Assembly: GCA_021796225.1 (NCBI GenBank)
Contig: JAJYOL010000005.1
Coordinates: 597 to 64,596, forward strand
Length of the DNA stretch: 64,000 nt
Source: Candidatus Micrarchaeota archaeon
GTDB lineage: Archaea; Micrarchaeota; Micrarchaeia; Micrarchaeales; CABMGC01
Direction of reading: 5' to 3'
The notes under the pieces were generated by a model, which had not been told where the DNA came from, made no database searches, and was given only the letters and a program-made list of their open reading frames with translations. Both the position numbers and the translations under genes were made by a program. Shown here piece after piece: positions 11,017 to 31,037 of the stretch (position 1 is its first letter; each line of letters starts with the position of its first letter).

Positions 11017-11961
11017 TCATGGTGCCGTATATGAATTTTCCCACGAAGCGGTAAAAGATGCATCAACAGAATTTCCATTGTATCCGTTACCGCCATAGTC
11101 ATCAGCATTTCCATTCAATGGCCACCATCCAACTAAATACTGCAATTCTATTGGCGCTCCGCCTATTCCTTCCCGGTATAACGCGCCCACAGTATTTGCA
11201 GACAGAGGCATGTTGTATAATTGCATATTTGCTATTTGCAATCCTGAAGAAACTTCGTCACCTCCGGGAGGATTACTTCCAAAACTCAACGCAGGGATAG
11301 AGAAATTTGTCAATGCATTAGAACCCAATGCAGTAAAAGTACATGTTTTGGAAACGTTACCATTCACATATAATATTATTGAATCATATTCGCTTACAGT
11401 GATAACAACGTTGTAAAAACGATATGGGGTTATGCTATTCAACGGTGTAGAACAGGATTGAAGGGAAGGCCAATTTTCTCCGTACGTCAAATCATTGCCA
11501 GTATTTGCACCTAGTCCTGAAAAATCAAAATTTTGGTTTCCACCTATGCCGTTGTTAGTACTTGCATTATAGATGTCGTATATCGGTGTTGACCAAGGTG
11601 ATCCCACGGTACCGCCATAATATGTGCCGGCAGGATTATTATCTGAAAACCATAAAGCAATAGTAAAGTTTGTCGTAGCAAGAGCAAAATGCGTTCCTTC
11701 TAAAGGACGACCATTTAATTGCAATACATATTGCGGAAATTCACCGCTGCAAATTCCCTCAAGATTAATATCGTAATTTGTTCCGGGACCGTTGGGACGG
11801 AATACTTGGCAACTTCCAGGTTGCGCCTTAGGCGCAAAGTTTGAAGGACTGAATATTCCGAGTGAATAAAGAACGCCAAGGACAACCGCAATGACTAGTA
11901 TCGCCCATCCGTAGGTCATGAGATATTCCATTGCGGACTGTAGTCGTAATTTCATATTCAT
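11017..11961 (-). CDS. class III signal peptide (pilin-like) LamG/ConA-like domain protein, paralog A
   Basis: RLQSAMEYLMTYGWAILVIAVVLGVLYSLG N-terminus; LamG motifs FTIALW, LYVNG, NMQLYN, GWWPLNGNA. Confidence 0.85.
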   Translation of the reverse strand: MNMKLRLQSAMEYLMTYGWAILVIAVVLGVLYSLGIFSPSNFAPKAQPGSCQVFRPNGPGTNYDINLEGICSGEFPQYVLQLNGRPLEGTHFALATTNFTIALWFSDNNPAGTYYGGTVGSPWSTPIYDIYNASTNNGIGGNQNFDFSGLGANTGNDLTYGENWPSLQSCSTPLNSITPYRFYNVVITVSEYDSIILYVNGNVSKTCTFTALGSNALTNFSIPALSFGSNPPGGDEVSSGLQIANMQLYNMPLSANTVGALYREGIGGAPIELQYLVGWWPLNGNADDYGGNGYNGNSVDASFTASWENSYTAP

Positions 11962-11965
11962 CCCG

Positions 11966-12886
11966 TTATGGTGGGGTATATCCGCCTTGCCACATTCCTG
12001 TAAATATTACATTTGTTGGCACGCCGTTGTTATTGTTTCCACTGTAGTCGTTTGCATTGCCATTGAGCGGCCACCAACCAGTAAGATTCTGCAATTTTAC
12101 CGGCGCTCCCCCTATTCCTGCAGAATAAAGAGAACTGATTTCTACAGGCGTAAGGTACGTGTTGTATGTTTGTACATTAGACATTTTGCCATCCAATTTG
12201 CCTACCAAACTACCTTGACAACCCGTACTAACACCCCCAAATTCTATTAATGGATTTGGAATACTACTGGATATATTTTGTCCTGATACCGAATCGGAAG
12301 CCACACCGTTTAAGTATATAGTTATCGTGCCCGTGCCTGCACCCCCGTTAGCAAGGCTTATAGTGAGCATATTCCATGAGTTAAAAGGTATCACCACATT
12401 GGATGATGAACCATACCAATTACCTGTGTAATCTTTATTCCATGTTGATACAACTACAGGACTTGCACCTATGTTATATGAACCGCAACCTGGATCTCCA
12501 GCATAGTTGGTATACGCATCAAAAAAAGTGCCGCCTTCGTTCATATATATCCACATATTTATACTGTAAGAAGGGATATTTGCTATCGGATATGTATTAG
12601 CTACAATATACCCTGTTCCAGCAAATTGTGCGACGTATTGTGGAAGTTCGCCACTACAGGTTCCTTCTAAATTAATATTGTAATTGGTATTAGGTCCGTT
12701 AGGACGGAATACTTGGCAACTTCCAGGTTGCGCCTTCGGTGCAAAGTTTGAAGGACTGAATATTCCGAGAGAATACAAAACACCGAGGACAACCGCAATG
12801 ACGAGTATCGCCCATCCGTAAGTCATGAGGTATTCCATTGCAGATTGGATTTTCAAATGGTGCAAGCGTACTGACATAAATCCCAT
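11966..12886 (-). CDS. pilin-like LamG domain protein, paralog B
   Basis: KIQSAMEYLMTYGW...; SINMW, IYLNG, NVQTYN, GWWPLNGNANDYSGNNNNG. Confidence 0.85.
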   Translation of the reverse strand: MGFMSVRLHHLKIQSAMEYLMTYGWAILVIAVVLGVLYSLGIFSPSNFAPKAQPGSCQVFRPNGPNTNYNINLEGTCSGELPQYVAQFAGTGYIVANTYPIANIPSYSINMWIYMNEGGTFFDAYTNYAGDPGCGSYNIGASPVVVSTWNKDYTGNWYGSSSNVVIPFNSWNMLTISLANGGAGTGTITIYLNGVASDSVSGQNISSSIPNPLIEFGGVSTGCQGSLVGKLDGKMSNVQTYNTYLTPVEISSLYSAGIGGAPVKLQNLTGWWPLNGNANDYSGNNNNGVPTNVIFTGMWQGGYTPP

Positions 12887-12965
12887 ATCTTAGACACATG
12901 AATATTTTTTAAGCACACTGCTTGCATTGCTCGCGCTAATGAAATATGGAAAAGAAAAAGCAGAA

Positions 12966-14615
12966 TAGATGTAGTCTTGAGCTTAATGCGAGGTCGCGAA
13001 TAAACGGAATTAGCTTCTTTGCACACTTGTTTGTTCTCTAAACTTCTAATGAAGTTATGAGGTGATCTATCCGCAGGTTCCCCTACGGATACCTTGTTAT
13101 GCCTTAGCCCCCCTCACGAAACCTTAGTTCGAAAGCATCATACGATGCTGCGTCACTAAGGCCTCACTTGGATGACTTGGCAGGCGGTGTGTGCAAGGAG
13201 CGGGGACTCATTCACCGCTCGATAGTGACAAGCGATTACTAGGGATTCCAGCTTCATGAGGGTGAGTTTCAACCCTCAATCCGGACTTTGATTGGTTTTA
13301 GGGGATTGGCTCCTCATTTCTGAGTTGCAGCCCATTGTACCAACCTCTGTATGCCGCGTGTAGCCCTGAAGATTCGGACTATACTGACGTACCGTCGCCC
13401 TCTCCTTCCTCCTGCTTAAACGCAGGCGGTCTCGACAGAGTGCTCACGCCATCGCTGGCATGATAGCAACTGTCAATGAGGGTCTCGTTCGTTACCGGAC
13501 TTAACCGGAGATTTCACAACACGAACTGACGATCGCCATGCAGCACCTCTCGGCTTGTTAGGTAAGATCTTTAGTCTGGCCTTCATCCTGCCGTCGCTCC
13601 AGGTAAAATTTCCGACGTTGAATTCAATTAAACCGTAGCATCCACCCCTTGTGTGCTCCCCCGCCAATTGCTTTAAGTTTCAACCTTGCGGCCGTACTCC
13701 CCAGGCGGCAGACTTAACAGTTGTCCTACGATACTGCACCTATTCGTGATAGGTGCAACACCAGAGTCTGCATAATTTACTGCTAGGGCTACTCGGGTAT
13801 CTAATCCGATTCGTTCTCCTAGCCTTCGTCACTCACCGTCGGATGCGTTCTGGTCAGGCGCCTTCGCCACCGGTAGTCTTCATAGGATTATAAGATTTTA
13901 CCCTTACCCCATGAATACTCCTGACCTCTTCCGCTCCCTAGCCAAAAGGTATCTTATGCACTCGTTGACGTTATGCGCCAACATTTCACATAAGACGGTT
14001 TTAGCCGGCTACGGACTCTTTAAGCCCAATAATAGTGAACACCACTTGTGCCGCCGGTATTACCGTGGCGGCTGCCACCGGTCTTACCCAGCACTTATTC
14101 TCCAAGCTGACTAAACTTGGCAAAAGATGCACCGAAGTGCATCACTCAGACTCCCCTCATCACACTTACGTGCATTGTGAAGTTTTCGCGCCTGCTGCAC
14201 GCCGTAGCGCTAGGGCCATTGTCTCAGTGCCCTTCTCGGGGCTCTTACTCTCATATCCCCTACGGGTAATAGGTATGGTGGGCCGTTACCCCGCCATCTG
14301 CCTGATCCGACGCAGTCTCATCGCAGAGCGGTAGTGCTGCAATTTGCACACCTTTTGAGCTAGAATTCATTCCAGAATTTCTAGCCTATATGGTATTAGC
14401 CTCAGTTTCCCAAGGTTATCCCCTTCTCTGTGGTAGATTGACCACGCGTTACTGAGCCGTACGCCGCCCAACGAAGCCGTTGGGCTGACTTGCATGGCTG
14501 TCGAAATCTGATAGCAGTGTCCTCCAGCAGCATCGACTGGAGTTAATTAACTTAATTATGATGCTAAAGCAATTGCGTTTCGCGAGCCTCTTTACATTGC
14601 TCAAGACTACATCTA
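12966..14615 (-). repeat. inverted repeat forming the pre-16S processing stem
   Basis: TAGATGTAGTCTTGAGC (12966-12982) is the exact reverse complement of 14599-14615; pairing continues inward through GAGG/CCTC and TCGCGAA/TTCGCGA. Confidence 0.9.
13056..14544 (-). rRNA. rrs: 16S rRNA (archaeal, divergent, unlinked from 23S, no evident intron)
   Basis: Minus strand: 5' AACTCCAGTCGATGCTGCTGGAGG, GGCAGCCGCCACGGTAA, ATTAGATACCC, AAACTTAAAGCAATTGGCGG, GCACACACCGCC, TAACAAGGTA, 3' GATCACCTCA; about 1.49 kb; ends approximate. Confidence 0.98.
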
Positions 14616-14710
14616 ATTCCAATAGGAATTTTCACGTGCCACAGCATAAATGAACATAGTTAGAACAACTATGAATGAAGCTATAGCAAGATAACAATTT
14701 GTATGAATAG

Positions 14711-14720
14711 GTTTATATAC
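14711..14720 (-). promoter_or_regulatory. probable rRNA promoter TATA box
   Basis: GTATATAAAC on the minus strand, about 100 nt upstream of the processing stem. Confidence 0.55.
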
Positions 14721-14827
14721 GTTCGCCCGACCCAGCGGCATATAATATCAACGTCAACATGATGGCGGATTATTGCGTTTGGAAGGCATCCGAAATCGCA
14801 CTTTCATATCATATGCACGCCACGAGG

Positions 14828-15700
14828 TTATGGTGAGACGTATTCGCCTTGCCATGTGGCGCTATATCGAACGTCATATGGCACCCCGTCATTATTATTG
14901 CCGCTGTAGTCTTCAGCATTTCCATTCAAAGGCCACCAGCCTATGAGATGTTGCAGGTCTGTAGGCACGCCTCCGATACCTTCATTGTAGAGTGCGCTTA
15001 CGTCGTTAGCGGTTAACGACGCATTGTATATTTGAACGTTTGCTATTGAAAAGGACGCATTTCCAGCCATGCCAATGAACAGATCGCCATTTGCATTATT
15101 GAATGACATGTTTCCAGAGAGTGTTCCCTTATACGCCTGAACGCCGTTTACGTACGTATAAATGGAATTTGCAGAGGAATTGTACGTTCCGGTATAATAC
15201 TGCCATTTGTTTAACGTTGCGCTCGGAGTGACGGTAATCCACGCCTGTCCGTTTGGAGTAATTATGGACCAGATAATCTCCAAGCTGTTAGGATTCATAT
15301 ACATGAAATATTGGCTGTTTATGTGTTTGCCCACCATAACGGGAAACTGCCCTGCACCAGTGGCGGAAAAGGTATTCATCCAGAAGGATACTGTAACCGT
15401 CTGGGTCGGATTCAGCATTAATGAATTTGCAACCGTAACATATCCAGTTCTGTCAAATTGCGCAACATATTGTGGTAGTTCACCACTGCAAACCCCTTCA
15501 AGATTTATATCGTAATTTGTTCCGGGACCATTGGGACGGAATACTTGGCACGAACCAGGAGACGCCTTAGGCGCAAAGTTCGAAGGACTGAAAATTCCTA
15601 GAGAATACAAAACACCTAGGACGACCGCAATGACTAGTATCGCCCATCCGTAGGTCATGAGGTATTCCGTTGCAGATTGGAGTTTTGATCCCATATTCAT
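14828..15700 (-). CDS. pilin-like LamG domain protein, paralog C
   Basis: MNMGSKLQSATEYLMTYGW...; VTVSFW, TYVNG, NVQIYN, GWWPLNGNAEDYSG; ATG 15700 chosen by homology to paralog A. Confidence 0.85.
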   Translation of the reverse strand: MNMGSKLQSATEYLMTYGWAILVIAVVLGVLYSLGIFSPSNFAPKASPGSCQVFRPNGPGTNYDINLEGVCSGELPQYVAQFDRTGYVTVANSLMLNPTQTVTVSFWMNTFSATGAGQFPVMVGKHINSQYFMYMNPNSLEIIWSIITPNGQAWITVTPSATLNKWQYYTGTYNSSANSIYTYVNGVQAYKGTLSGNMSFNNANGDLFIGMAGNASFSIANVQIYNASLTANDVSALYNEGIGGVPTDLQHLIGWWPLNGNAEDYSGNNNDGVPYDVRYSATWQGEYVSP

Positions 15701-15705
15701 CCCGA

Positions 15706-16638
15706 TTACGGCGGTGTATATCCACCCTGCCATGTTCCGGTAAATATCACGTTTGTTGGCACGCCGTTGTTATTGTTTCCACTGTAGTCGTTTGCATTAC
15801 CATTGAGCGGCCACCATCCGACCAGATGTTGTAAATCTACAGGCGCAGCTCCGATGCCTTGACTGTATAAAGCGCTTATTGCATTGGCCGATAAAGTTGT
15901 ATTATACGTTTGCACGTTAGACTCATAACCTATCATGTCATTACCTGGACCAGTATGCCCTAACCCATACGCACCTAGTGTAAGGTCATTTTGAAGCCCT
16001 GCTGCGCCACCGGATGAAAACGAACATTCCTGGCCAGATACGTACAGTACCGATGTAGTGGCATTCATGGTCTCAACTACAAAGTACCACTTGTTCATAC
16101 TGATCCCATTAATATGGCAATTGCCGCTGGACCCGCCGTGTATGAAGAAGGTAAAACCAGTGCTTGTAGCCCCCGGATATGAGTTAGGATATGACTGCAG
16201 ACCTATGGCATTGTTAGATTCCGTGTTAGACCACCACTCCTGCACCCCGTTGGAAGAATTGAATCCGGACACTTCTATCCATCCAGTGTATGAAACAGAA
16301 TTCTGATAAAATCTAGGATTTAGGCTTGATATCCACACCAGAGAATCTTCGCCATTGAATCCTGCAACATACGTAGGCAGTTCGCCGTTACATGTGCCCT
16401 CCAAGTTCGCATCATACGATGTGCCTGGTCCATTCGGCCTGAACACCTGGCACGAGCCGGGCTGCGCCTTCGGCGCGAAGTTCAACGGATTGAAAATGCC
16501 TATAGAGTACAGCACGCCCAGAACGACAGCGATGACGAGTATGGCCCATCCGTAAGTCATGAGGTACTCCATTGCGGATTGGAGTTTCTGGTGCTTCATC
16601 ATGGATCGTGGTTTGCTGTTTCTGCAGGCCATAAGCAT
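15706..16638 (-). CDS. pilin-like LamG domain protein, paralog D (start may be 16602/16599)
   Basis: KLQSAMEYLMTYGW...; SYTGW, LYVSG, NVQTYN, GWWPLNGNANDYSGNNNNG. Confidence 0.85.
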   Translation of the reverse strand: MLMACRNSKPRSMMKHQKLQSAMEYLMTYGWAILVIAVVLGVLYSIGIFNPLNFAPKAQPGSCQVFRPNGPGTSYDANLEGTCNGELPTYVAGFNGEDSLVWISSLNPRFYQNSVSYTGWIEVSGFNSSNGVQEWWSNTESNNAIGLQSYPNSYPGATSTGFTFFIHGGSSGNCHINGISMNKWYFVVETMNATTSVLYVSGQECSFSSGGAAGLQNDLTLGAYGLGHTGPGNDMIGYESNVQTYNTTLSANAISALYSQGIGAAPVDLQHLVGWWPLNGNANDYSGNNNNGVPTNVIFTGTWQGGYTPP

Positions 16639-17527: not shown

Positions 17528-18760
17528 TTACTTCTTCTCTTTTCTTTCAGCCTTGGCTTTAGACCTTCTCAGCTTTTTACTTGCAACCACAACCACTATA
17601 AGTATTATGGCTATTATGAGAACGTCTTCTGCAAGATTCCCCGTACCGGAAGTGCGTGAAACCGGAACGAAATAGTTATTCGATCCGGAATACTGCTGGT
17701 TAACAGCACCATTTGGCTGTTTCCACTGCTCGGTAAGCGTTACCGGATAATTTCCAGGAACGCCGGACGTGTCAACACTCACCATGAATGTCATGTTGGT
17801 GGATTGCCCCGGTTCTAGGCTCGCGATATACGCAGTGCTTGAAACGGGAGATACCGGATAGGTGGTTTGCAAGCTCACTTGAAGCTGATTTGCAACGCTT
17901 GTCCCGGTATTCGTTATCACAAAGCTGATCGGTACGTCAGTGGCACCGACAACAGGTCCGGAACCCGACGAACTTATGGTGAATTGTGCAGCGGGGGCAA
18001 CCGAAAGATTGACCTGCTGGCTTGTGGTGAAGCGCTGCTTGAGCGTAGACGAATAATAGGTTACATTTACAAGCAGGCTTGTGTCGCTTTCATTCTGCGC
18101 GCCGACAAGAAGCGGCTCGGTGACGGAAGAACCCTGTGATATGCTGTCCGCATAGAACGTCCTGACTGAACTCAGTATGTTGAGCCCTGTCGCCCTGCTT
18201 ACAGTTATGCTTACGTTTTTAGCCGTGCCGTACCCTGTATTTTCAACTATCAGATTGATAGTCTGGTTATGTCCGGCATAGAGCGTTGATGGAGACGGAC
18301 TTGATGCAACAACCTTTATTGCAGGCCTGTTCTGAACATAGAAACTTATCGGCATTGTAGATGTTGCGACTTGCGTACCGGTTGCGGCATATATGAAATA
18401 TGAAGCAGTCATCGTCACCGTGTAAGTGCCAGATGAAGTGGTGTTTGGTATGAAAAAGGTGTAGGCGTAGTAGCCCGTTGTTTGTACGGGATTTACCGTA
18501 CCCACCTGATAGCCGCTCAGCGGCGATGCGTTCAGCAATGGATACGACGCGCTAGGTTGCAGCACCGTGCTGTACAGCCATTCGTCATATCCGTTATGCA
18601 GCTGGAACCTTATAGTCACATTGCTCCCCGCAACAACAGGATTGGGAGAGACCGAAATGTTCGCCAATGTGAGCGAGTTGTCGTATACCGACTGCGCACT
18701 GACCATTCCGCTTAGCAGCGCAAGCGCAGCGACAGCCAGAAGGAAATTTCTTGCATTCAT
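17528..18760 (-). CDS. secreted Ig-fold (COG1361/CARDB-like) surface protein with C-terminal TM anchor
   Basis: Signal peptide, repeated NTGxxxAxNV Ig motifs, C-terminal TM followed by a basic tail. Confidence 0.75.
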   Translation of the reverse strand: MNARNFLLAVAALALLSGMVSAQSVYDNSLTLANISVSPNPVVAGSNVTIRFQLHNGYDEWLYSTVLQPSASYPLLNASPLSGYQVGTVNPVQTTGYYAYTFFIPNTTSSGTYTVTMTASYFIYAATGTQVATSTMPISFYVQNRPAIKVVASSPSPSTLYAGHNQTINLIVENTGYGTAKNVSITVSRATGLNILSSVRTFYADSISQGSSVTEPLLVGAQNESDTSLLVNVTYYSSTLKQRFTTSQQVNLSVAPAAQFTISSSGSGPVVGATDVPISFVITNTGTSVANQLQVSLQTTYPVSPVSSTAYIASLEPGQSTNMTFMVSVDTSGVPGNYPVTLTEQWKQPNGAVNQQYSGSNNYFVPVSRTSGTGNLAEDVLIIAIILIVVVVASKKLRRSKAKAERKEKK

Positions 18761-19903: not shown

Positions 19904-20902
19904 CTACCTTCTTCCCATCATGAACGTTCCTTTTGCCCCTGTACTGTATGCCCCTTCAGTGTCCCTTAATTCGGAACCCGTAAGTTTGAGAAACACGTCG
20001 TCTATCGTAGGCTCGTGCATGCTTATGTTGTGTATCTGGATTTTCATAGCAGTGATTTCCTTGACGAGCATTTCTATCTTTTTAGTCGCATTGCTTCCCC
20101 CCAGTGCAGTGACCTTGTTATTCAGCACCTTCGCATCGAGACCCACTTTTTCGAATGCCTTGGCAACTTTTGGAATATCTTCCCTTTCAGCTGTAATCTC
20201 TATTACGCTGCTTACGCCTATTTTCTGCCTGAGTTCGGCAGGCGTGCCCAAGGCGATTAACTTGCCGTGATCGATTATGCCTATTCTGTCGCAGAGCTGA
20301 TCAGCTTCCTCCAAATATTGCGTTGTCATCAATATGGTCACATTCTGCTTTTGATTTATGTTCCTCAGAAGGTCCCATATCTTTGCTCTGTTCTGAATAT
20401 CAAGGCCCGTCGTAGGTTCGTCGAGGAGAATGAGCTCCGGCGCATGCATCAGTGATTTTGCCGTTTCCAGACGCCGTTTCATCCCTCCGGAAAACGTTCC
20501 CGCATACGAATGCCTGAACGATTCCAAATCCGCAAGTTTGAGTGCAAAGTCTATGTCTTTTTGAAGCTCAGGCTCCGGTATGTGATAAAGCTTTCCGAAT
20601 ATCATGAGATTCTGTTCGGCAGTCAGTTCGGGTTCGACCACGGTTTCCTGGGTCACTATTCCTATCTGCTTTCTAGCAGAACGCGGATCCTTCTGGATAT
20701 CCGTGCCGTTTATGAGGATTTTTCCGGAAGTTGGGGCTATGAGGCCCAAAATCATGTTTATAGTAGTGCTTTTTCCAGCGCCATTCGGTCCGAGCAAGCC
20801 GAATATCTCGCCTTTCTTTATGTTTAGGTTTATGCCGTTCACTGCCGTAAAGTCACCGAATTTCTTGACGAGATCTTGTATCAATACGGCATTGTCACTC
20901 AT
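19904..20902 (-). CDS. ABC transporter ATP-binding protein (DrrA-like)
   Basis: GPNGAGKS, FSGGMKRRL, LDEPTTGLD, EPTIDDVF. Confidence 0.93.
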   Translation of the reverse strand: MSDNAVLIQDLVKKFGDFTAVNGINLNIKKGEIFGLLGPNGAGKSTTINMILGLIAPTSGKILINGTDIQKDPRSARKQIGIVTQETVVEPELTAEQNLMIFGKLYHIPEPELQKDIDFALKLADLESFRHSYAGTFSGGMKRRLETAKSLMHAPELILLDEPTTGLDIQNRAKIWDLLRNINQKQNVTILMTTQYLEEADQLCDRIGIIDHGKLIALGTPAELRQKIGVSSVIEITAEREDIPKVAKAFEKVGLDAKVLNNKVTALGGSNATKKIEMLVKEITAMKIQIHNISMHEPTIDDVFLKLTGSELRDTEGAYSTGAKGTFMMGRR

Positions 20903-21266
20903 CGAACTCCTCCTTCAACATCTTCTTCATTTCAACAGCCATCTTCTTTATAAGCATATCGCGGTTTTTAATGACCGTCTTTCCCTTGACAGTTATAGCA
21001 TAAAGCTTTTGCATCTTTTTGCCTTCCATCCTCTTCCTACTTTTAATATACCCTTCCTTCTCGAGTACGGAAGTCATATTATATATGTCGCTCTTGCTGA
21101 AATATTTGGCCATTGGGCCGTTGTGTTTCTTCATGTGCTTTAGCAGCGCATACGGATACGTATTGCTGCGTTCTATGTAGTTAAGTATTATGGTTTTCAT
21201 TATCCCTCTGGCCGTATCCTTGTCAAGATATCTCATCAGGGAATTTTTCATCTTTTCGTCTTTCAT
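20895..21266 (-). CDS. PadR family transcriptional regulator
   Basis: IYNMTSVLEKEGYI...KLYAITVKGK winged-HTH; heads the ABC operon. Confidence 0.8.
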   Translation of the reverse strand: MKDEKMKNSLMRYLDKDTARGIMKTIILNYIERSNTYPYALLKHMKKHNGPMAKYFSKSDIYNMTSVLEKEGYIKSRKRMEGKKMQKLYAITVKGKTVIKNRDMLIKKMAVEMKKMLKEEFDE

Positions 21267-21272
21267 CTCTAC

Positions 21273-21299
21273 ACTAGTTTAAAGTTAAACTAGTTTAAA
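21273..21299. promoter_or_regulatory. candidate PadR operator (inverted plus direct repeat)
   Basis: ACTAGTTTAA-AG-TTAAACTAGT perfect 10-bp arms; ACTAGTTTAAA also repeated directly; lies between the TATA box (about 21313-21321) and the ATG. Confidence 0.7.
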
Positions 21300-21426
21300 T
21301 ATACACTAAAAGGTATATAAACATATCAGAAGTGCCGCCGAGATGCCTAGCATAATGATTATAAGGCATTACACCATATTTAATATAACAATATAAACGG
21401 ATAGCAGGCAGTACGGTGTATTATTT

Positions 21427-24294
21427 ATGATAAATTATAGGGACCTTGAAAACAAATGGCAGGCAGAGTGGGACAAGGCCAAGATATTCGAAGGCAGCAT
21501 GAACCAGAAGCAATCGTACATGGTAACGGCCGCGTTTCCTTATGCTAATGCGCCGCAACACATAGGACATCTCAGGGTATTCGGCACCGCCGACGTTCTG
21601 GCGCGATACAAGAGGATGAAAGGATTTAACGTATTGTATCCGATGGCATTTCACGCTACGGGGACCCCGATACTCGCGTTTGCAAAGCGATTGCAGAATA
21701 AAGACCCGGAACTTATACGCGAGCTTAAGATGTTTCACGTTCCTGACGAAGAAATAGAAAAAATGACCGACCCCGTGTACATAGCGGAATATTTCATAAA
21801 GGAAATAGAAAAAGGCATGCATGCAGTGGGCTTCAGCATCGATTGGCGCAGATCATTCGTATCGATAGAACCGAAATTCAGCAAATTCGTAGAGTGGCAG
21901 ATAAACCTACTTAATTCCAAAGGATTGCTTACAAAAGGCGAACACCCTGTAGGATGGTGCCCTAACGAGAACAATGCGGTAGGAATGCACGACACGAAAC
22001 ACGATGTTGAGCCGGACATTGAAAAAGAAATGGCAGTGCGATTTGAAATAGAAGGGAAAGACGCATCGTTCATATGCGCAACATACAGACCTGAAACACT
22101 TCCAGGAGTGACGAATCTTTTTGTTAATGAAAAAGCCGTGTATGTCGCATGCAGGATAGGAGAGGATGGAAAGACATATTACATTTCAAAAGAAGCCGCA
22201 AGCAGACTTGGTTATCAGTTCAAAATAGAAGCAATCAGTGAGATAAACGGGGAAGAACTTCTGAAGATGTCATGCACAAACCCGTTCACAGGACTGAAAA
22301 TTCCCGTGCTTCCGGGCTTCTTCGTAAATCCGGTCGTAGGCACAGGCGTTGTCATGAGCGTCCCGGCACATGCGCCTTTCGATTATGTCGCGATAGAGAA
22401 ACTGAAAACTTCAGGCTATCCTGTTCCGGAGATAAAACCGGTAAAAGTGGTGGACGTTGAGATAGGCAGATCCTTGGATAAAAAAACAGGGCAAGCGCAG
22501 GTATCGGATATCCCGGCACTCGAATATCTCAAAGCAGTAGGAGCGGATGTTTCATCTCCCGACAATCTTATAGAACAGGCAACAAAATTGGAATATAAGG
22601 AGGAATCGCATTGGGGAAAAATGTCGGTGGGTGGATTTGAAAACATGTCCGAACCCGAAGCAAGGGAGAAGATGAAAGGAATTCTCATGCAAAAAGGCAA
22701 CGGATTCGAGATGCACATACTTGCAAACAGGCCAGTGTATTGCAGATGCGGCACTGAAATAGTAGTAAAGGTTGTGGATAACCAATGGTTCATAAATTAC
22801 GGAAACGCAGAATGGAAGAAAAACGTCAACGAGGCATTCAAGGATATAACGATATTGCCGCCGAAAAGCAGAAAGGCGTTCGAATCCGCCATAAACTGGC
22901 TTGATTTGAGAGCGGTTGCAAGAGCACAGGGCCTTGGAACCAGATTCCCGATAGATAACAATTACATAATCGAATCCCTGTCCGATTCGACGTTGTACAT
23001 GTCCTTTTACACCATAGTTAACCTGATACGCGATACGGATCCTGAAAAACTCAAACCGGAATTTTTCGATTATGCCATACTCGGAAAGGGAGAAGCAGAA
23101 GTCATCGCAAAGTCAACGGGAATCGATTACGAAACGATAAAGAAATGCAGGGAATCGTTCCAGTATTGGTATACGAACACGTCGAGACATTCAGGACCGG
23201 ACCTGATTTTCAACCACCTTACCATGTACATATACAACCACGTTGCAATCCTTGAGAAGAAATACTGGCCCAAGCAGATAGTGGTAAACGGGTCCGTGCT
23301 AAGTGAAGGGGAAAAGATGAGCAAGAGCCTTGGCAATATCGTACCGCTTATGGATGCGGTTGAAAAGCACGGCGCGGATCCTTTGAGATTCGTCATAGTC
23401 GCAGGAGCGGACCTTTTCAGCGATTCGGAATACAGCGATGATTCGGTAAACGGGATAAAAGAACGGTTCGAATACATATTCAAAATAGCGGAAAATATGA
23501 AGAGCATGCAGGCAGGTCAGCTCGAACACATAGATTACTGGTTGTATTCGAAACTTAACAGAAAAATAGATACGGTATCCAAATCCATGGACATACTCGA
23601 ACTGAGGGTTGCATCGACGGAATTGCTTTACAATTCGGTTTTGGAACTTAAAAGATACTTCTCACGCGGCGGAAAGAACAGCATCGTCATCAAGGATTAT
23701 ATAAACTCGTTGGTTCTGATGCTCGCACCGATATCCCCGCATATCGCCGAAGAGCTGTGGAGAATGCTGGATTATGACAACTTCGTTGCATTGGAGAAGT
23801 GGCCGGAACAGGATCAGTCGATGGTAAACGAAAAGGTGGAAAGACAGGAAGATATAGTAGACAGGACTATAGACGACGCGAGGGAAGTAATGAATATAGT
23901 CAGGAAAAAAGAGAACAAGGAACCGCGCGAAATAAACCTAATTGTCGCCGAGGATTGGAAGAGGGAAGTGAACAATCTCATGGCAGCGGAGAAGAACGTC
24001 GGCAAACTCATTGAGAACATAACTGGCAACAAGGACAGCATTCTTGGAGAAACGACGAAGAAAATGAATGTGGAAATGATACTCGATTATGTAAAGGGCA
24101 ACGCGAAGAGGATAGGAAGCATACAGCACACCGACATAACACAGGAAGAGGAACTTTCTTTCCTGAAAGAGGCATCGGGATACGTATCCGAAATGTTAGG
24201 CTGCAAAGTCAACGTGGTCAAGGAATCGGAATCTAAATCTGAAAGGGCGAAGAGATCGATGCCGGGAAAGCCGAGCATAGACGTAAGCCTTTGA
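21427..24294 (+). CDS. leuS: leucyl-tRNA synthetase (archaeal type)
   Basis: AFPY, HIGH, ATYRPET, GTGVVMSVPAHAPFDY, ESLSDST, KMSKS. Confidence 0.95.
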   Translation: MINYRDLENKWQAEWDKAKIFEGSMNQKQSYMVTAAFPYANAPQHIGHLRVFGTADVLARYKRMKGFNVLYPMAFHATGTPILAFAKRLQNKDPELIRELKMFHVPDEEIEKMTDPVYIAEYFIKEIEKGMHAVGFSIDWRRSFVSIEPKFSKFVEWQINLLNSKGLLTKGEHPVGWCPNENNAVGMHDTKHDVEPDIEKEMAVRFEIEGKDASFICATYRPETLPGVTNLFVNEKAVYVACRIGEDGKTYYISKEAASRLGYQFKIEAISEINGEELLKMSCTNPFTGLKIPVLPGFFVNPVVGTGVVMSVPAHAPFDYVAIEKLKTSGYPVPEIKPVKVVDVEIGRSLDKKTGQAQVSDIPALEYLKAVGADVSSPDNLIEQATKLEYKEESHWGKMSVGGFENMSEPEAREKMKGILMQKGNGFEMHILANRPVYCRCGTEIVVKVVDNQWFINYGNAEWKKNVNEAFKDITILPPKSRKAFESAINWLDLRAVARAQGLGTRFPIDNNYIIESLSDSTLYMSFYTIVNLIRDTDPEKLKPEFFDYAILGKGEAEVIAKSTGIDYETIKKCRESFQYWYTNTSRHSGPDLIFNHLTMYIYNHVAILEKKYWPKQIVVNGSVLSEGEKMSKSLGNIVPLMDAVEKHGADPLRFVIVAGADLFSDSEYSDDSVNGIKERFEYIFKIAENMKSMQAGQLEHIDYWLYSKLNRKIDTVSKSMDILELRVASTELLYNSVLELKRYFSRGGKNSIVIKDYINSLVLMLAPISPHIAEELWRMLDYDNFVALEKWPEQDQSMVNEKVERQEDIVDRTIDDAREVMNIVRKKENKEPREINLIVAEDWKREVNNLMAAEKNVGKLIENITGNKDSILGETTKKMNVEMILDYVKGNAKRIGSIQHTDITQEEELSFLKEASGYVSEMLGCKVNVVKESESKSERAKRSMPGKPSIDVSL

Positions 24295-26516: not shown

Positions 26517-28025
26517 ATGGCTGAACAAGAGAGTGCGGAAAAAAACGTTCTTGCTACGTATAGGCTGAATGCGAAGGGCCTGATTGCCGACGTAATCATA
26601 CGCGATAAAGGAGGCTTCGTAAACGAATACGAAGTCAGCATGCAGGGCATAGGAAACGCTACAAAGGTGCTGCTTACTTCACTTAGGCCGGAACTGCTTT
26701 CCATCGTCCCCATAGATCCTTCAAGAGTCGACGATAAGGAATACGAAGCAGAACTCATACTCAAATATACTGACGCGTCCAATCTTGTAATAAACAAATA
26801 TCTTCCCGGAACAACTGAAGCGGTAAGGAAGATGCTTGTAGCTTTTATAATAAACATGCTGCTGGGGCTTGGCGAACTTGAGGTGCCCCTGTCCGACGAA
26901 AATCTTGAAGAAGTTGCAATAAACGGATCGCGCGATATGCTGTGGGTATTCCACAGACAATACGGATGGTGCAAGACCAACATCGCACTGAAAGATGAAG
27001 AGGAAATATACGACTATTCGGAACAGATAGGAAGAAAGGTTGGCAGGCAGATATCAAACCTCAATCCCCTTATGGATGCGGAACTGCTTGACGGATCAAG
27101 AGTCAATGCCACACTGTACCCAATATCCCAGGCAGGAAACACGATAACGATAAGAAAATTCTCCAAAAACCCGTGGTCCATGGTAGCGCTGGTTGCAAAC
27201 AAGACCCTTTCGCTGGAAATGGCGGCTCTCACGTGGCTATGCGTGCAGAACGAAATCAGTCTGCTCATATCTGGGGGAACGGCAAGCGGGAAAACAAGCT
27301 TCCTCAACGCATTGGGAATATTCATGCCTGCAAACAGGAGGGTCATCTCCGTTGAAGAAACGAGGGAACTTACGCTCCCTGATTTCCTGCAGTGGCTGCC
27401 GATGCTTACGAGACAGCCCAACCCGGAAGGAAAGGGAGAAGTCACGCTTTACAACCTCATGATAAACGCGCTGAGACAAAGGCCGGACATACTGCTTGTA
27501 GGAGAAATAAGGACAAAGGAAGACGCACAGACGCTTTTCGAGGCAATACATACCGGTCACGCGGTTTACGGCACGCTTCATGCGGACAATGCAAGCAACA
27601 CGATAGTCAGAATGAGCAATCCCCCCATTAACATTTCAAAGCTGATACTCAATGCATTGGGAGGCATAGTTAATCTCTTCAGGCATAGACGACTCGGGGT
27701 GAGGAGGCTTCTCGAGTTCGGTGAAATGCTCGGCAGCGGGGACATATCCGTAATAGAGAGATGGGACATAAACAACGACTCGTTCGTGAAAATAGGCGAC
27801 ATGACAAGGCTTGCCGATACGATAGGACTTTACAGCGGCTTTACCCGACAGGAGATATCACAGGATATAGTAGAAAAAGGAGAGATACTCAACTGGATGG
27901 TTACGAACAAGGTATCGATGGTCGATGATGCAGGATACGTAGTTGCAAATTACTACAAGAATCCGTCAAAGATCCTTCAGGCTGTGAAAGACAACGCGGC
28001 CTTTTCCAAAAAAATGTTTGGCTAG
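26517..28025 (+). CDS. type IV pilus/Tad assembly ATPase (TadA/VirB11/ArlI-like)
   Basis: GGTASGKT, SVEETREL, ALRQRPD, GEIR, HTGH...TLHA. Confidence 0.93.
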   Translation: MAEQESAEKNVLATYRLNAKGLIADVIIRDKGGFVNEYEVSMQGIGNATKVLLTSLRPELLSIVPIDPSRVDDKEYEAELILKYTDASNLVINKYLPGTTEAVRKMLVAFIINMLLGLGELEVPLSDENLEEVAINGSRDMLWVFHRQYGWCKTNIALKDEEEIYDYSEQIGRKVGRQISNLNPLMDAELLDGSRVNATLYPISQAGNTITIRKFSKNPWSMVALVANKTLSLEMAALTWLCVQNEISLLISGGTASGKTSFLNALGIFMPANRRVISVEETRELTLPDFLQWLPMLTRQPNPEGKGEVTLYNLMINALRQRPDILLVGEIRTKEDAQTLFEAIHTGHAVYGTLHADNASNTIVRMSNPPINISKLILNALGGIVNLFRHRRLGVRRLLEFGEMLGSGDISVIERWDINNDSFVKIGDMTRLADTIGLYSGFTRQEISQDIVEKGEILNWMVTNKVSMVDDAGYVVANYYKNPSKILQAVKDNAAFSKKMFG

Positions 28026-28937: not shown

Positions 28938-30035
28938 TTGGGAAGCATGGATTCGAACGATAATAATATTGTAGGATTTACAAAACCTAAAAAGTTCCTT
29001 TTCTTTAAGATTAAATCCAAACCGATATACAAGAAAGCGGACACGACGGAGCAGTCCGTAACACCGCAGGCGCCGCCCCAATCGCAAATGCCGCCTACGA
29101 TAGTTCAACCCCAACCACAAGATATCCCCGCAGAAATACCGCAATCCGCACCGCAGCAGCCGCAACAAAACAATAAGCAGACGATAACGAAATTCCAACT
29201 TTACGTGGCCAAGGTGGTTGCAAAGCAGAAAGGACTGGAAATGATACTGCGTGACCAGGGAATCAAAGGCGGACCGGAAAAGTTCGTAAAGAGAATGTTA
29301 TTCAGCGCGATAATCGTCGCCATAGTAATAGGCATAATAACTATGGTCCTGTTCGACAAGATACTGGCCATGAAGGTTGCGAATCCTGCACCAATAGCCG
29401 TACTGCTCGGTGCCGTAATAGCATTTGGAGGATACAATGCACTCTTTAGGCAGTTTCTGAGATTTCCATTCTCGAAGTCCAAATCCGAAGGGAAGGAGAT
29501 AGAAAAAGGGATTCTCTTCGCTGCCAGGGATATGATAATAAGCCTTAGGTCAGGAGTACCGCTTTTCAACGCCATGACGGCAGTATCTTCGGGTTACGGG
29601 GTGGCGAGCAAGGAATTCGTCAAGATAATAAGCCTGATACAGCTCGGCATGCCCATGGACCAGGCAATGGAGGAGATAAGCAATTCAAGCAGTTCCAAGA
29701 CATTTAAAAGAATAATGCTTCAGGCCAGCGTGAGCATAAAGGAAGGTGCCGATATCGTACAGGCATTGCAGGAAGTGGTTGACCAGGTAATGCAGGAAAG
29801 AGTCATAGAATTGAGAAGATACGGACAGAGGCTCAATGCCCTTTCCATGTTCTACATGCTTTTCGGAATAATATTCCCGAGTATGGGAGTAGCAGTGCTC
29901 ACTATACTTACGACATTCGTAAACGTGTTTACGGTAACGACAAGCTTTCTTATATTCGTGCTCATATTCATAGCAATACTGCAATTCATATTCATCATGG
30001 TAATGAAAAATTCAAGACCAATATTCAGCATGTAG
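28938..30035 (+). CDS. type II secretion F-family pilus platform protein (TadB/TadC-like)
   Basis: Two TMs, SLRSGVPLFNA...GMPMDQAM...GADIVQAL, C-terminal TMs; Pro/Gln-rich N-terminus. Confidence 0.88.
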   Translation: MGSMDSNDNNIVGFTKPKKFLFFKIKSKPIYKKADTTEQSVTPQAPPQSQMPPTIVQPQPQDIPAEIPQSAPQQPQQNNKQTITKFQLYVAKVVAKQKGLEMILRDQGIKGGPEKFVKRMLFSAIIVAIVIGIITMVLFDKILAMKVANPAPIAVLLGAVIAFGGYNALFRQFLRFPFSKSKSEGKEIEKGILFAARDMIISLRSGVPLFNAMTAVSSGYGVASKEFVKIISLIQLGMPMDQAMEEISNSSSSKTFKRIMLQASVSIKEGADIVQALQEVVDQVMQERVIELRRYGQRLNALSMFYMLFGIIFPSMGVAVLTILTTFVNVFTVTTSFLIFVLIFIAILQFIFIMVMKNSRPIFSM

Positions 30036-30044
30036 TGAAGGTTT

Positions 30045-31037
30045 ATGGCAATAACATTCGAGAGGCTCGTATCAAGAAGCGTCGTTACTTACGTCTCCGA
30101 AGAGTTGGACCTTGCAGGCAGCAAGCTTTCGGTAAACAGATTCTTCAAGATAGCCATTTTGGGGTTCTTTGCCATTTTCATTGCGGTTCCGTTCATAATG
30201 GTGTTCTACGCCAAATTCTCTGAGATTCTTTCTGTGTTCTTCGGATTCATCGGAGGGGTATTCTTTGAAATACTGCTTTACATACTTCTCGAATTCCAAA
30301 TCGAAAAGAGAAAGACGTTTGTGGAGAACATACTTCCGGATTATCTACAGCTCGTTGCCGCAAACATAAGAAGCGGCATATCGTTAGATAGGGCCATGCT
30401 GCTTGCGAGCAAACCCGAATTCGGATATTTCAAAACCGACATTGAAATCATGAACAAGCAGCTGTATTCAGGAGAAACGATGCAGAACGCATTGAACAAC
30501 CTGTCAAAGAAATACAGGTCGACGGTATTGCAGCACAGCATAAGGCTTATATTGGAAGCCGTCAGATACGGAGGCGCGCTTACAGATTTGCTCAATCAGA
30601 TAGCGAAGGATACGCGCTCGCAACAGACAATACAGAAAGAAATATCCGGACAGCTTTTCATGTATACGATATTCATAGCATTTGCCGCATTGATGGCCGC
30701 TCCGGCACTTTACGGACTTACCTTCCAAATGATAACTATAACTGACAAGGTATGGGCAGGCATACTTGCCCAAAATCCCGGCGGGCTTCCTACGGCAGGA
30801 TTGTCATTCCTCAAGCCAAGTCCTCCGCAGATAACCCCGGGCATGTATTATGATTTCTCAATAGTTGCAATAATAATAATCACTGGATTCGGTGCATTCA
30901 CCATATCGACGATTTCCAGCGGTGCGCCATTGAAAGGAATACGGTACGCGCCGTTATTCGTCATTGTGGGCATAGTGATATTCTTCATGGTATCCGCAAT
31001 AATAGGAGTACTGTTCTCAAGCATAGGATCTGTCTGA
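30045..31037 (+). CDS. type II secretion F-family pilus platform protein (TadC-like)
   Basis: LPDYLQLVAANIRSGISL...GETMQNAL...YGGALTDLL. Confidence 0.9.
   Translation: MAITFERLVSRSVVTYVSEELDLAGSKLSVNRFFKIAILGFFAIFIAVPFIMVFYAKFSEILSVFFGFIGGVFFEILLYILLEFQIEKRKTFVENILPDYLQLVAANIRSGISLDRAMLLASKPEFGYFKTDIEIMNKQLYSGETMQNALNNLSKKYRSTVLQHSIRLILEAVRYGGALTDLLNQIAKDTRSQQTIQKEISGQLFMYTIFIAFAALMAAPALYGLTFQMITITDKVWAGILAQNPGGLPTAGLSFLKPSPPQITPGMYYDFSIVAIIIITGFGAFTISTISSGAPLKGIRYAPLFVIVGIVIFFMVSAIIGVLFSSIGSV

Follow-up and report, generated by a model that had tools for sequence, protein, structure and literature searches.

What process gave four genes around the 16S rRNA gene of a tiny symbiotic archaeon ends whose nucleotide identity is patchy, with the closest partner changing along the gene? 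The genes lie in a 64,000-nucleotide stretch (the window) of a Candidatus Micrarchaeota metagenome-assembled genome (MAG). A preliminary description of this DNA had seen in them four cassettes whose ends undergo gene conversion, and had drawn an analogy to the pilE/pilS system. We examined the four genes, the family to which they belong and a genome of the same genus.

Results

Four full-length genes flank the 16S rRNA gene

The four genes, A to D, are all carried on the minus strand. Gene A (positions 11017 to 11961, an ORF of 314 aa) has a pilin-like N-terminal end, a LamG-type centre and a conserved C-terminal end; no Pfam family scored above its cut-off on A, and only weak matches to sialidase/trans-sialidase jelly rolls were obtained. 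Gene B (11966 to 12886, 306 aa), whose stop codon lies 4 nt ahead of the gene A ATG, matches Laminin_G_3 with 38.3 bits, above the curated cut-off of 27.6. Gene C (14828 to 15733) has a longest ORF of 301 aa, although its likely start is the ATG of MNMGSKLQ near 15700, and matches the same domain with 71.2 bits. Gene D (15706 to 16638, 310 aa) remains slightly under the cut-off with 25.5 bits. The archaeal 16S rRNA gene (13057 to 14543, minus strand; Rfam RF01959, 1372 bits) sits between the A/B and C/D pairs on the same strand and is 96–98% identical to the syntenic 16S rRNA gene of G007, the same-genus genome used below. What had been taken for four cassettes are four full-length genes, and the patchwork identity at their ends is real.

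A conserved 5' block of 74 codons, counted in the codon alignment from the Q of QSAMEYL, occupies positions 11719 to 11940 in A, 12626 to 12847 in B, 15458 to 15679 in C and 16360 to 16581 in D (minus strand; bounds computed as the position of the Q codon minus 221 nt). Its pairwise nucleotide identity is 0.82–0.86 among A, B and C and 0.69–0.73 to D. All the identical strings quoted in the preliminary description were recovered in the window, at the positions given for them. A and C share 38 bp (11885–11922 and 15624–15661), A and B share a 35-mer (at 11795 and 12702) and a 29-mer (at 11834 and 12741), B and C a 16-mer (12769 and 15601), and B and D a 22-mer (12811 and 16545). All of these fall in the 5' (N-terminal) ends. 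The remaining match, 47 bp common to B and D (12012–12058 and 15752–15798) and continued by 17 identical bases past one mismatch, lies in the 3' (C-terminal) ends. Exact runs common to A–D do not exceed 53 bp.

As a null model for chance identity we shuffled codons within alignment columns, exchanging them only between sequences that encode the same residue (300 shuffles), which preserves the proteins and the family's position-specific codon use. The 38-bp A–C run was reached in 1 of 300 shuffles, the 35-bp A–B run in 2 and the C-terminal B–D run in none; the latter was scored as 39 bp in this test because an alignment gap column splits the true 47-bp run. The short matches were within chance, the longest B–C run (17 bp) being reached in 160 of 300 shuffles and the N-terminal B–D run (23 bp) in 44. 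The claim that identity goes beyond codon bias thus holds for the long runs, which codon bias alone does not explain, but not for the 16- and 22-bp matches.

The A–C and B–D identities had been listed as separate patches. They are real but not independent, since both lie on one colinear 320-bp block that crosses a gene boundary: the 3' end of B, a 25-nt spacer and the 5' end of A (11761 to 12079, minus strand) are colinear with the 3' end of D, its spacer and the 5' end of C (15500 to 15819, minus strand). In this block 279 of 320 aligned columns are identical, compared with 29 of 51 in the columns directly before it. Informative sites in the four N-terminal ends supported AC|BD (9 sites), AB|CD (8) and AD|BC (5), in the order AC, AB, AC along the end. 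Partner switching among these four genes alone is only suggestive of recombination. The patchwork described among the four ends stands, but A to D represent only a small part of a family of 33 copies, and the closest partners of many of their segments are paralogs on other contigs. The evidence that decides the matter comes from the whole family and a related genome rather than from four genes.

A large family with constant ends and hypervariable centres

The family comprises at least 33 full-length copies of about 300 aa (33 of 41 HMM matches). Together they amount to 28.8 kb, or 3.6% of the 0.79-Mb, 82.7%-complete MAG, and they are spread over at least six contigs. Each protein is built of three parts. 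A near-invariant stretch of about 74 residues consists of a short leader, a hydrophobic type-IV-pilin-like N-terminal helix and a Cys-containing linker. It is followed by a hypervariable LamG/concanavalin-A-like jelly-roll centre of about 130–170 residues and by a conserved tail of about 75 residues. Amino-acid identity across the family is 0.82 in the N-terminal end, 0.18 in the centre and 0.62 in the C-terminal end. The short charged leader and hydrophobic helix are present in all 33 copies, with leaders such as MKSKLQ followed by SAMEYLMTYGWAILVIAVVLGVLY.

An AlphaFold2 model of C (pLDDT 74) has a helix at residues 2–27 (pLDDT 82–95) and a beta-sandwich at residues 72–218. Foldseek searches with this model retrieved 433 PDB chains at E ≤ 0.001, and the top matches listed are ConA-like jelly rolls, among them a Bacteroides carbohydrate-binding protein (4dqa, TMq 0.56), the pentraxin PTX3, PAPP-A and the lectin-like subdomain of clostridial neurotoxin binding domains; sequence identity is 12–20%, so that the likeness is one of fold only. 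No Pfam pilin or class III signal model matched A–D at E ≤ 1, and NCBIfam gave only a weak TafC match for C (19.7 bits for a cut-off of 410). Short N-terminal motifs are often missed by profile models, and the absent match therefore weakens the formal filing of these proteins as pilins, not the resemblance. Genes for an assembly ATPase (T2SSE, 26517 to 28025) and for platform proteins (T2SSF, 28938 to 30035 and 30045 to 31037) lie 10 kb from the array and adjoin giant multi-LamG genes; a Peptidase_A24 prepilin peptidase was not found in the MAG, which is only 82.7% complete.

In tandem arrays, the stop codon of one gene precedes the Q codon of the next by 23–27 nt. A 3' end, the spacer and the following 5' end thus form one continuous homology block of about 470 bp, which alternates with unrelated centres. 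The genes of such arrays are 4–12 nt apart, which suggests co-transcription, and they are probably co-expressed in short operons. A diversity-generating retroelement, with a template repeat beside a reverse transcriptase, is present on another contig; the ORF of 218 aa that holds its variable repeat is unrelated, and no family gene matches its template.

Gene ends recombine across the family

For the N-terminal end, the PHI statistic was reached in 0 of 1000 permutations at windows of 30 and 60; for the C-terminal end it was not significant (565, 281 and 261 of 1000). In AU tests the tree of each segment was rejected on the data of the other segments (p from 3e-3 to 1e-10). We calibrated this conflict against random codon partitions: the conflict between contiguous halves of the N-terminal end was 332.6 lnL, compared with 178 ± 29 when codons were halved at random (0 of 102 partitions reached the observed value), and that between the N- and C-terminal ends 322.1, compared with 184 ± 33 (0 of 92). 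A single tree for all segments is rejected by the N-terminal PHI, AU and calibrated conflict tests. In 10 N-end pairs and 11 C-end pairs, exact runs were longer than the 95th percentile of the family-wide maximum under shuffling, and the longest (146, 101 and 98 bp) exceeded the shuffle maximum of 59 bp.

Distances in the ends and in the centres are uncorrelated (Mantel r = −0.10 for N-end and −0.05 for C-end against centre). In the nine closest N-end pairs, synonymous codon difference is 0.19–0.30 in the N-terminal ends, compared with a saturated 0.66 pooled over their centres; close N-terminal ends do not reflect recent whole-gene duplication. Genes within 5 kb of each other are closer in the N-terminal end than the rest (0.217 versus 0.268; 0 of 3000 permutations), an effect absent from the centres (0.823 versus 0.824). 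All tracts of at least 90% identity fall in the ends. Synonymous-codon identity is 0.48 in the N-terminal end (0.35 expected from genome codon use) and 0.42 in the C-terminal end (0.37 expected), and the median synonymous codon difference of the ends is 0.54–0.58 across the family. Most of the end identity in the family is due to purifying selection on the protein and needs no recombination. The 3' end plus next 5' end was not supported as a general unit of exchange (r = −0.13 over 16 junctions and 120 pairs); coupling across the junction was seen in single cases, namely B/A with D/C and C10_37823m/36931m with C14_101808p/102700p. A RadA recombinase is encoded in the genome.

Ends evolve in concert within genomes

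From G007, 17 of 27 family matches were extracted. In 8 of 10 partner pairs defined by their centres, 9–29 paralogs of the same genome were closer in the N-terminal end than the partner was. On synonymous codons, the nearest N-end neighbour belonged to the same genome for 43 of 50 genes; the nearest centre neighbour did so for 1–2 of the 17 G007 centres. Synonymous difference in the N-terminal ends was 0.53 and 0.52 within the two genomes and 0.59 between them (0 of 5000 permutations). In this end, similarity is greater among paralogs of one genome than between partners from different genomes, that is, the ends show concerted evolution. Centres have recognisable partners in another species at 42–97% amino-acid identity and therefore predate the species split.

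The syntenic slots of A, B and C hold unrelated centres in G007 (amino-acid identity 0.18, 0.11 and 0.15) between conserved flanks. Unrelated heads in three of the four slots read as whole-gene turnover at fixed chromosomal slots, judging from the sequences compared. Gene D is 95% identical in nucleotides to its syntenic G007 ortholog, compared with 68% for the neighbouring gene, and carries an N-terminal end of the other species' type. In its 3' end, a three-way alignment of D, this ortholog and B delimits a candidate conversion tract of about 65 bp (15751 to 15816, minus strand), in which D departs from its own ortholog and matches B (12011 to 12076, minus strand), either a B-like donor or a co-converted copy. 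Inside the tract, D agrees with B at 7 sites and with the ortholog at 2; upstream the numbers are 5 and 59 (Fisher p = 1.5e-5), and the polarity of the tract depends on the ancestral state having been retained in the G007 ortholog. Taken together, these results bear out the earlier view that the mosaic identity, synonymous sites included, is not the product of simple duplication, and they support gene conversion or segmental recombination.

Alternative explanations

Could the family be old and tree-like, with ends held by purifying selection and chance runs arising from shared codon preferences? The near-saturated synonymous sites of the ends (0.48 versus 0.35 and 0.42 versus 0.37), the 16- and 22-bp matches within chance and the non-significant C-terminal PHI all agree with this. 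However, it leaves unexplained runs far beyond the shuffle maximum, the PHI result for the N-terminal end, a conflict between contiguous segments that no random codon partition equalled, paralogs that, in 8 of 10 pairs, lie nearer than the partner defined by its centre, and the discrete tract shared by D and B, and we regard it as very unlikely. Hardly more credible, and if anything less so, are recent tandem duplications after which positive selection drove the centres apart very fast, the close ends marking young duplicates. The closest N-terminal ends do often belong to array neighbours, and diversifying selection often targets surface adhesins. Yet the centres of the nine closest N-end pairs are as saturated (0.66) as those of other pairs (0.62–0.65), centres differ by many indels with a minimum amino-acid distance of 0.69, and they predate the species split while the N-terminal ends group by genome.

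A mosaic could also be manufactured by metagenome assembly or binning, through wrong paths at repeats, bubble-popping between paralogs or strain mixture. The genome is a 15-contig draft MAG. Independent k=31 contigs of the likely source run match the unique centres exactly and break inside the conserved ends, where depth is 277 compared with 26 in neighbouring bins, so that linkage across the ends rests on the original assembler. Against this, the exact runs among A–D (at most 53 bp) are shorter than the final k-mers usual in metagenome assemblers; the unique centres and a 144-bp piece of the B/A junction recur without a single difference when run X1 is assembled independently; a 4.8-kb contig joins D to its G000-type neighbour; and a second, separately assembled genome has ends that group by genome and centres that group by ortholog. 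An artefact is in our view highly improbable. The least probable account is the programmed antigenic variation of the pilE/pilS type, in which one expressed gene is rewritten from silent donor cassettes. The hallmarks of that system are an expression locus with promoterless, 5'-truncated silent copies, variable segments that are copied in, and a G-quadruplex initiator. As in Neisseria, there are pilin-family genes, many variant copies and RecA/RadA-type gene conversion between them. But each of the 33 copies has a complete ORF that opens with its own start codon and leader, and none is 5'-truncated, partial family matches occurring only inside the giant multi-LamG genes. Transfers spare the variable centres and are confined to the conserved ends, no copied centre being found genome-wide (minimum amino-acid distance 0.69). 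The window contains no G4 motif (two occur in the genome), and the 4–12 nt spacing of tandem genes suggests co-transcription. In short, conserved rather than variable parts are converted, no expression locus with silent cassettes accompanies them, and the analogy made in the preliminary description fails.

Discussion

We consider it likely that segmental recombination between conserved blocks, themselves under purifying selection, operates in a large family of putative pilin-lectin adhesins. Our data demonstrate homologous recombination between conserved blocks as the source of the patchwork nucleotide identity, and we infer that it takes the form of non-reciprocal gene conversion, its tracts measuring from tens of bp to a few hundred. 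Conversion would be layered on a strong purifying selection that holds the protein ends constant; its activity would be highest in the 5' block and among copies lying near one another, and its tracts would not run past the shared homology into the divergent centres. Over longer times, the gene at a fixed chromosomal slot would be replaced as a whole, and gene D was probably exchanged recently with a related species. The proteins are putative pilus-borne or pilin-anchored adhesins with differing lectin-type heads, which an episymbiont would use for binding host surfaces. Their repertoire would be encoded in full and not switched from silent cassettes.

A comparable architecture is that of Streptococcus sanguinis PilC, reportedly a modular type IV pilin that joins a pilin-type N-terminal segment to a concanavalin-A-like lectin module. 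The two share this combination and a presumed display on pili for adhesion. The relationship is of fold alone, not of sequence, and pilus incorporation is putative in the archaeal case; PilC-type genes number one or a few in a bacterial genome, whereas the archaeal family has 33 paralogs with unrelated heads.

LamG-like jelly-roll proteins are expanded in Ca. Mancarchaeum acidiphilum Mia14 and other DPANN archaea, some members being linked to type IV pilus loci with a proposed role in host-cell interaction (Golyshina et al. 2017, PMC5498576). Lineage (Micrarchaeota), domain and family expansion are thus alike, but the part of that account considered here is one of expansion only: the constant-end, variable-centre build, the mosaic identity, the concerted evolution of ends, slot turnover and cross-species exchange do not figure in it (PMC5498576). 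The lpl genes of Staphylococcus aureus are likewise tandem paralogs for host-interacting surface proteins with alternating conserved and variable blocks, in which homologous recombination acts at the conserved block and reshuffles the variable ones, and trees of different gene parts disagree (Tsuru and Kobayashi 2008, PMC2568036). The phase is inverted: in lpl the conserved block lies in the middle and what varies extends over two genes, whereas in the archaeal family it is the conserved block that crosses from one gene into the next, and what varies is a single protein domain. Further differences are that the archaeal family has no family-wide junction coupling, is spread over at least six contigs and was compared between species rather than strains.

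More tentatively, and as a possibility that we would not yet favour, the constant ends may double as portable recombination handles. The block of about 470 bp between unrelated heads would allow handles to be homogenised, a head to be replaced at its slot and a head to be imported from another species, all by homologous recombination. The 95% identity of D next to a neighbour at 68%, its N-terminal end of the other species' type and the unrelated heads in three of four slots are consistent with such handles. If they exist, this repertoire would be driven by recombination and would determine which hosts DPANN episymbionts recognise and how broad their host range is, and it would be an archaeal counterpart of bacterial adhesin-cassette systems that operates without silent copies or a dedicated recombinase.

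A family of 33 paralogs with conserved ends and divergent centres

The neighbouring genes A (11017-11961), B (11966-12886), C (14828-15733) and D (15706-16638) are all complete and lie on the minus strand, with the archaeal 16S rRNA gene (13057-14543, minus strand) between the pairs A/B and C/D. The source genome is a draft of 789 kb in 15 contigs. A profile made from the four proteins matched 41 of its open frames, of which 33 are full-length copies of about 300 aa; the other eight, giant multi-LamG proteins and other pilin-like proteins, were excluded from the family. The 33 copies stand singly or in arrays of 2-4 genes on contigs C6, C7, C8, C10, C13 and C14 and add up to 28,761 bp, or 3.6% of the assembly. 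Every copy opens with a short charged leader, which precedes QSAMEYLMTYGWAILVIAVVLGVLY. Averaged over pairs, amino-acid identity is 0.82 in the N-end (first 74 codons), 0.18 in the centre and 0.62 in the C-end (last 75 codons). The family was matched in all of the 31 genomes that were searched in the order, this one included, with 9-46 matches per genome.

Pfam Laminin_G_3 matched the centres of C (71.2 bits) and B (38.3 bits) above the cut-off of 27.6; D scored 25.5 and A had no match. No pilin or class III model of Pfam matched, and NCBIfam offered no usable family name. An AlphaFold2 model of C, made from the 33-row alignment (mean pLDDT 74), comprises a helix (2-27) and a beta-sandwich (72-218) with a Cys-containing linker, poorly predicted, between them, and Foldseek placed it with concanavalin-A-like jelly rolls at 12-20% identity, a likeness at fold level only. 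The conserved tail, which contains LxGWWPLNGNAxDYSGNNNNG, is poorly predicted in this model (pLDDT 30-63).

This tail comes after the complete Pfam LamG match (C, 14828-15055, and all family C-ends), and the only partial matches to the family that tblastn and HMM searches returned are segments of the giant multi-LamG proteins that align to the family C-terminal region. Together, these two observations suggest that the 300-aa genes may be phase-shifted (circularly permuted) units related to the giant repeat proteins. A duplicated leader module, QSAME-H(R/Q)KPF(G/E)KRFHPK-(A/L)QSAMEYL, is present in several copies that head an array or stand alone (source contigs C7:6306-6570, C10:38700-38761 and C10:18560-18651; also L107:2440-2500, the C-slot gene of the same-genus genome G007). 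Its nucleotide identity is 90-94% across loci, and it resembles the trace that unequal 5'-end recombination would leave. In another genome of the order (G026:C1:583634-590410), four family matches with near-identical scores (E 4.0-4.1e-59) follow one another at an exact spacing of 1974 bp, which probably reflects the recent amplification in tandem of a 2-kb unit in that lineage.

Genomic context

The window also holds a type IV filament ATPase gene (T2SSE, 26517-28025), two platform-protein genes (T2SSF, 28938-30035 and 30045-31037) and, adjoining them, three giant multi-LamG genes (31482-40116). The giant proteins are 883, 709 and 1111 aa long and contain between one and four Laminin_G_3 repeats each; the 1111-aa protein opens with a pilin-like N-terminus, and one of the three has in addition a PQQ/beta-propeller region. 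No prepilin peptidase was found in the genome, which is 82.7% complete. A LamG-like expansion and its link to pilus loci were already known from a cultured Micrarchaeon (Golyshina et al. 2017, PMC5498576). Directly upstream of the MTAP gene, positions 17528-18760 encode a secreted protein of 410 aa, probably another surface protein, that has CARDB/NEW3 domains and a membrane anchor at the C-terminus; its gene is about 71% identical in nucleotides to the G007 counterpart.

The patches among A-D are part of a family-wide mosaic

A preliminary description had reported patchwork identity among the ends of A-D and attributed it to gene conversion. All the strings it quoted were found in the sequence. 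The A=C and B=D matches are real, but they are not separate patches; indeed, both belong to one colinear block in which positions 11761-12079 (B 3' end, spacer, A 5' end) align with 15500-15819 (D 3' end, spacer, C 5' end), with 279 of 320 columns identical. Immediately ahead of this block, 29 of 51 columns are identical. At 15 of the 16 tandem junctions of the family, the stop lies 23-27 nt from the Q codon of the next gene, with a conserved GGGATGAATATGAAATC spacer, so that a 3' end and the following 5' end form a single homology stretch of about 470 bp. Even so, the junction does not act as a general unit of exchange: its two sides are uncoupled (r = -0.13 over 16 junctions, 120 pairs; 3669 of 5000 permutations at or above this value).

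All four genes, A-D, have their longest runs in common with paralogs on other contigs as well. The longest run of A (53 bp) is common to two genes of contig C8, that of C (45 bp) to three genes of C14, and that of B (44 bp) is shared with a C7 gene. Haplotype-like short patches recur in subsets of copies, as with the AGT- and TCN-type serine codons at PKA(Q/S/T)PGSC. The patchwork of the four genes is part of a mosaic that extends over the whole family.

We then asked how much of this identity exceeds chance, using as a null the shuffling of codons within each alignment column among copies sharing the residue (300 shuffles). The A=C run of 38 bp was reached in one shuffle, the A=B run of 35 bp in two and the B=D run in none, whereas two shorter runs turned out to be ordinary: the 17-bp B-C run was reached in 160 shuffles and the 23-bp B-D run in the N-end in 44. 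Over the whole family, the longest exact runs measure 146, 101 and 98 bp in the N-end, with a shuffle maximum of 59, and for the C-end they measure 74 and 69 bp, with a shuffle maximum of 38. Runs above the 95th percentile of the family-wide maximum under shuffling occur in 10 N-end and 11 C-end pairs. The bulk of the end identity is not beyond chance. Positions with the same residue use the same codon in 48% of cases in the N-end (35% predicted from genome codon use), 42% in the C-end (37% predicted) and 38% in the centre (36% predicted). Synonymous codon identity is thus near the genome expectation, and selection on the protein is the main force that keeps the ends constant.

The ends conflict with each other and are decoupled from the centres

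A single tree does not fit all segments. The PHI test was positive for the N-end (0 of 1000 permutations, windows 30 and 60) and not significant for the C-end. In AU tests, the maximum-likelihood trees of the two N-end halves (N1, N2), the N-end and the C-end were each rejected by the data of the others (p 3e-3 to 1e-10). Since AU-type tests are liberal with short alignments, the conflict was calibrated against random codon partitions. The summed likelihood loss between contiguous N-end halves was 332.6, compared with 178 ± 29 for random codon halves (0 of 102 reach it), and that between N-end and C-end was 322.1, a value that none of 92 random halvings of the concatenation reached (184 ± 33).

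Distances in the ends are uncorrelated with those in the centre (Mantel r -0.10 for N-end/centre and -0.05 for C-end/centre). Young whole-gene duplication would also produce close ends, and the nine closest N-end pairs do differ at only 0.19-0.30 of synonymous codons in the N-end. Their pooled centre difference, however, is 0.66, saturated like that of all other pairs, and no alignment of at least 90% identity extends into any centre; these pairs are therefore not young whole-gene duplicates. Proximity is reflected in the N-ends: the N-end distance is 0.217 for pairs within 5 kb and 0.268 for the others (0 of 3000 permutations), and the centre distance is 0.823 and 0.824, without a proximity effect. 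Distances throughout are p-distances without correction. Six divergent copies are omitted from the core27 and core junction variants of the proximity and junction tests, and results for all 33 were also computed.

The family in a related species

G007 belongs to the same genus, its 16S gene being 96-98% identical, and both genomes share the order flank, A-slot, B-slot, 16S, C-slot, D, MTAP, the G007 locus being divided over two contigs by a break inside the 16S gene. From 27 family matches in G007, 17 genes were taken by ORF/regex extraction. At least two further cross-species blastn pairs lie outside the distance tables; C7_6570p (93.3% over 891 bp) and C10_84236p (source contig C10:84236-85256; 84.9% over 1022 bp to a G007 pseudogene) are such cases. 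This pseudogene is the family copy at G007:C20:11565-12422 (L139), which two TGA and one TAA stops interrupt.

Ten pairs have related centres across the two genomes (97, 94, 67, 65, 62, 60, 60, 59, 49 and 42% amino-acid identity), while no pair within a genome exceeds about 36%; the heads are therefore older than the species split. For the eight of these pairs whose centres are 42-67% identical, the N-end of the partner ranks only 16th to 43rd of 49 (source-genome side), and 9-29 paralogs of the same genome have a closer N-end than the partner. C-ends keep closer to the partner in these pairs, at ranks 3-13 in most cases. When synonymous codons are compared, 43 of 50 genes have their nearest N-end neighbour in the same genome; for the centre, this holds for just 1-2 of the 17 G007 genes. 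Synonymous difference in the N-end is 0.53 and 0.52 within the genomes versus 0.59 between them (0 of 5000 permutations); the corresponding centre shift is smaller (0.026) and probably reflects genome codon usage. By these comparisons, the 5' block undergoes concerted evolution.

The G007 genes in the A, B and C slots have centres unrelated to those of A, B and C (amino-acid identity 0.18, 0.11 and 0.15), and their N-ends rank 39th, 40th and 32nd of 49. The G007 B-slot gene has a full-length homologue on source contig C10 (68% nucleotide identity). At these fixed slots, heads have relocated or been replaced. In a more distant genus relative (G009:C9:1-6000, L144), the 3.2 kb that separate 16S from MTAP contain RuBisCO-like and MtnA-like (methionine-salvage type) genes but none of the family, so the D-C pair is a lineage-specific insertion beside the rRNA gene. 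The stretches examined beside MTAP in G008, G001 and G006 also hold no family gene, those of G008 and G006 stopping at contig ends.

Gene D carries a cross-species signal and a delimited tract

MTAP at the syntenic locus is 68% identical in nucleotides between the two genomes (synonymous codon difference 0.65), versus 95% (0.10) for D and its G007 ortholog, and the high identity begins immediately past the MTAP stop codon. Among 11 genus relatives, a 96% match to D was found in G007 only, and MTAP matched at 74% in G007 and at 57-66% in five others. The N-end of D is closer to the G007 paralogs (0.241) than to those of its own genome (0.284), making D one of six of 50 genes closer by N-end to the other genome. 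In an independent assembly of X1, the likely source sequencing run, a k=31 contig joins D to a neighbour of source-genome type. We infer that D was exchanged recently between these lineages, in a direction that the data only hint at.

The differences between D and its ortholog cluster in the 3' end. In a three-way alignment with B, D agrees with the ortholog at 59 sites and with B at 5 upstream of the tract, compared with 2 and 7 sites across 15751-15816 (Fisher p 1.5e-5). The B=D match of 47 plus 17 bp in the preliminary description corresponds to this tract of about 65 bp, for which conversion from a B-like donor is the best reading if the ortholog kept the ancestral state.

Candidate mechanism

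Mosaic ends, decoupling of ends from centres, homogenisation dependent on genome and proximity, one delimited tract and slot turnover are the observations at hand. The mechanism we propose is RadA-type homologous recombination between conserved blocks; RadA is encoded in the genome. Its tracts would mostly be short, non-reciprocal and bounded by the divergent centres, and a head could be replaced or imported through occasional exchanges on both its flanks. Purifying selection on the pilin-like anchor and the conserved tail would keep the homology available.

The analogy with pilE/pilS drawn in the preliminary description fails on the defining features of that system, as there are no truncated copies, no copied centres and, in the window, no G4 motif. 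Diversity of the centres might instead come from a diversity-generating retroelement (DGR), and the genome does contain one on contig C2 (20376-22534), in which all 14 mismatches fall on adenines of the template. The element includes reverse-transcriptase ORFs apparently split over two frames (20376-21158 and 21035-21520) and a 102-bp template repeat (21553-21654); its variable repeat (22092-22193), however, lies within an unrelated 218-aa ORF outside the LamG-pilin family, and the DGR was rejected as the source. The nearest described logic is that of the S. aureus lpl cluster, as outlined in PMC2568036, where conserved and variable blocks alternate; here the phase is inverted. Within openly accessible main texts, we found no account of gene conversion or concerted evolution in the LamG-pilin family.

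As regards assembly support, 73% of sampled words occur in the Logan contigs of X1 and about 15% in those of three other public runs (X2-X4), where the matches are mostly to the conserved ends and the 16S gene. The unique parts of the draft genome are reproduced by independent contigs, none of which bridges the conserved ends; the few joints in public-run contigs have sides of just 20-33 letters.

Significance

For the LamG-pilin family, trees from whole genes or ends mislead, and the centres alone track orthology. The family is physically linked to the type IV filament locus, in a sub-megabase genome. Its heads are old and diverse, its anchors are uniform through selection plus gene conversion, and single heads can cross species; these features make the family a source of concrete candidates for the host-specificity determinants of DPANN archaea. 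They also suggest how a large adhesin repertoire may stay evolvable in very small genomes.
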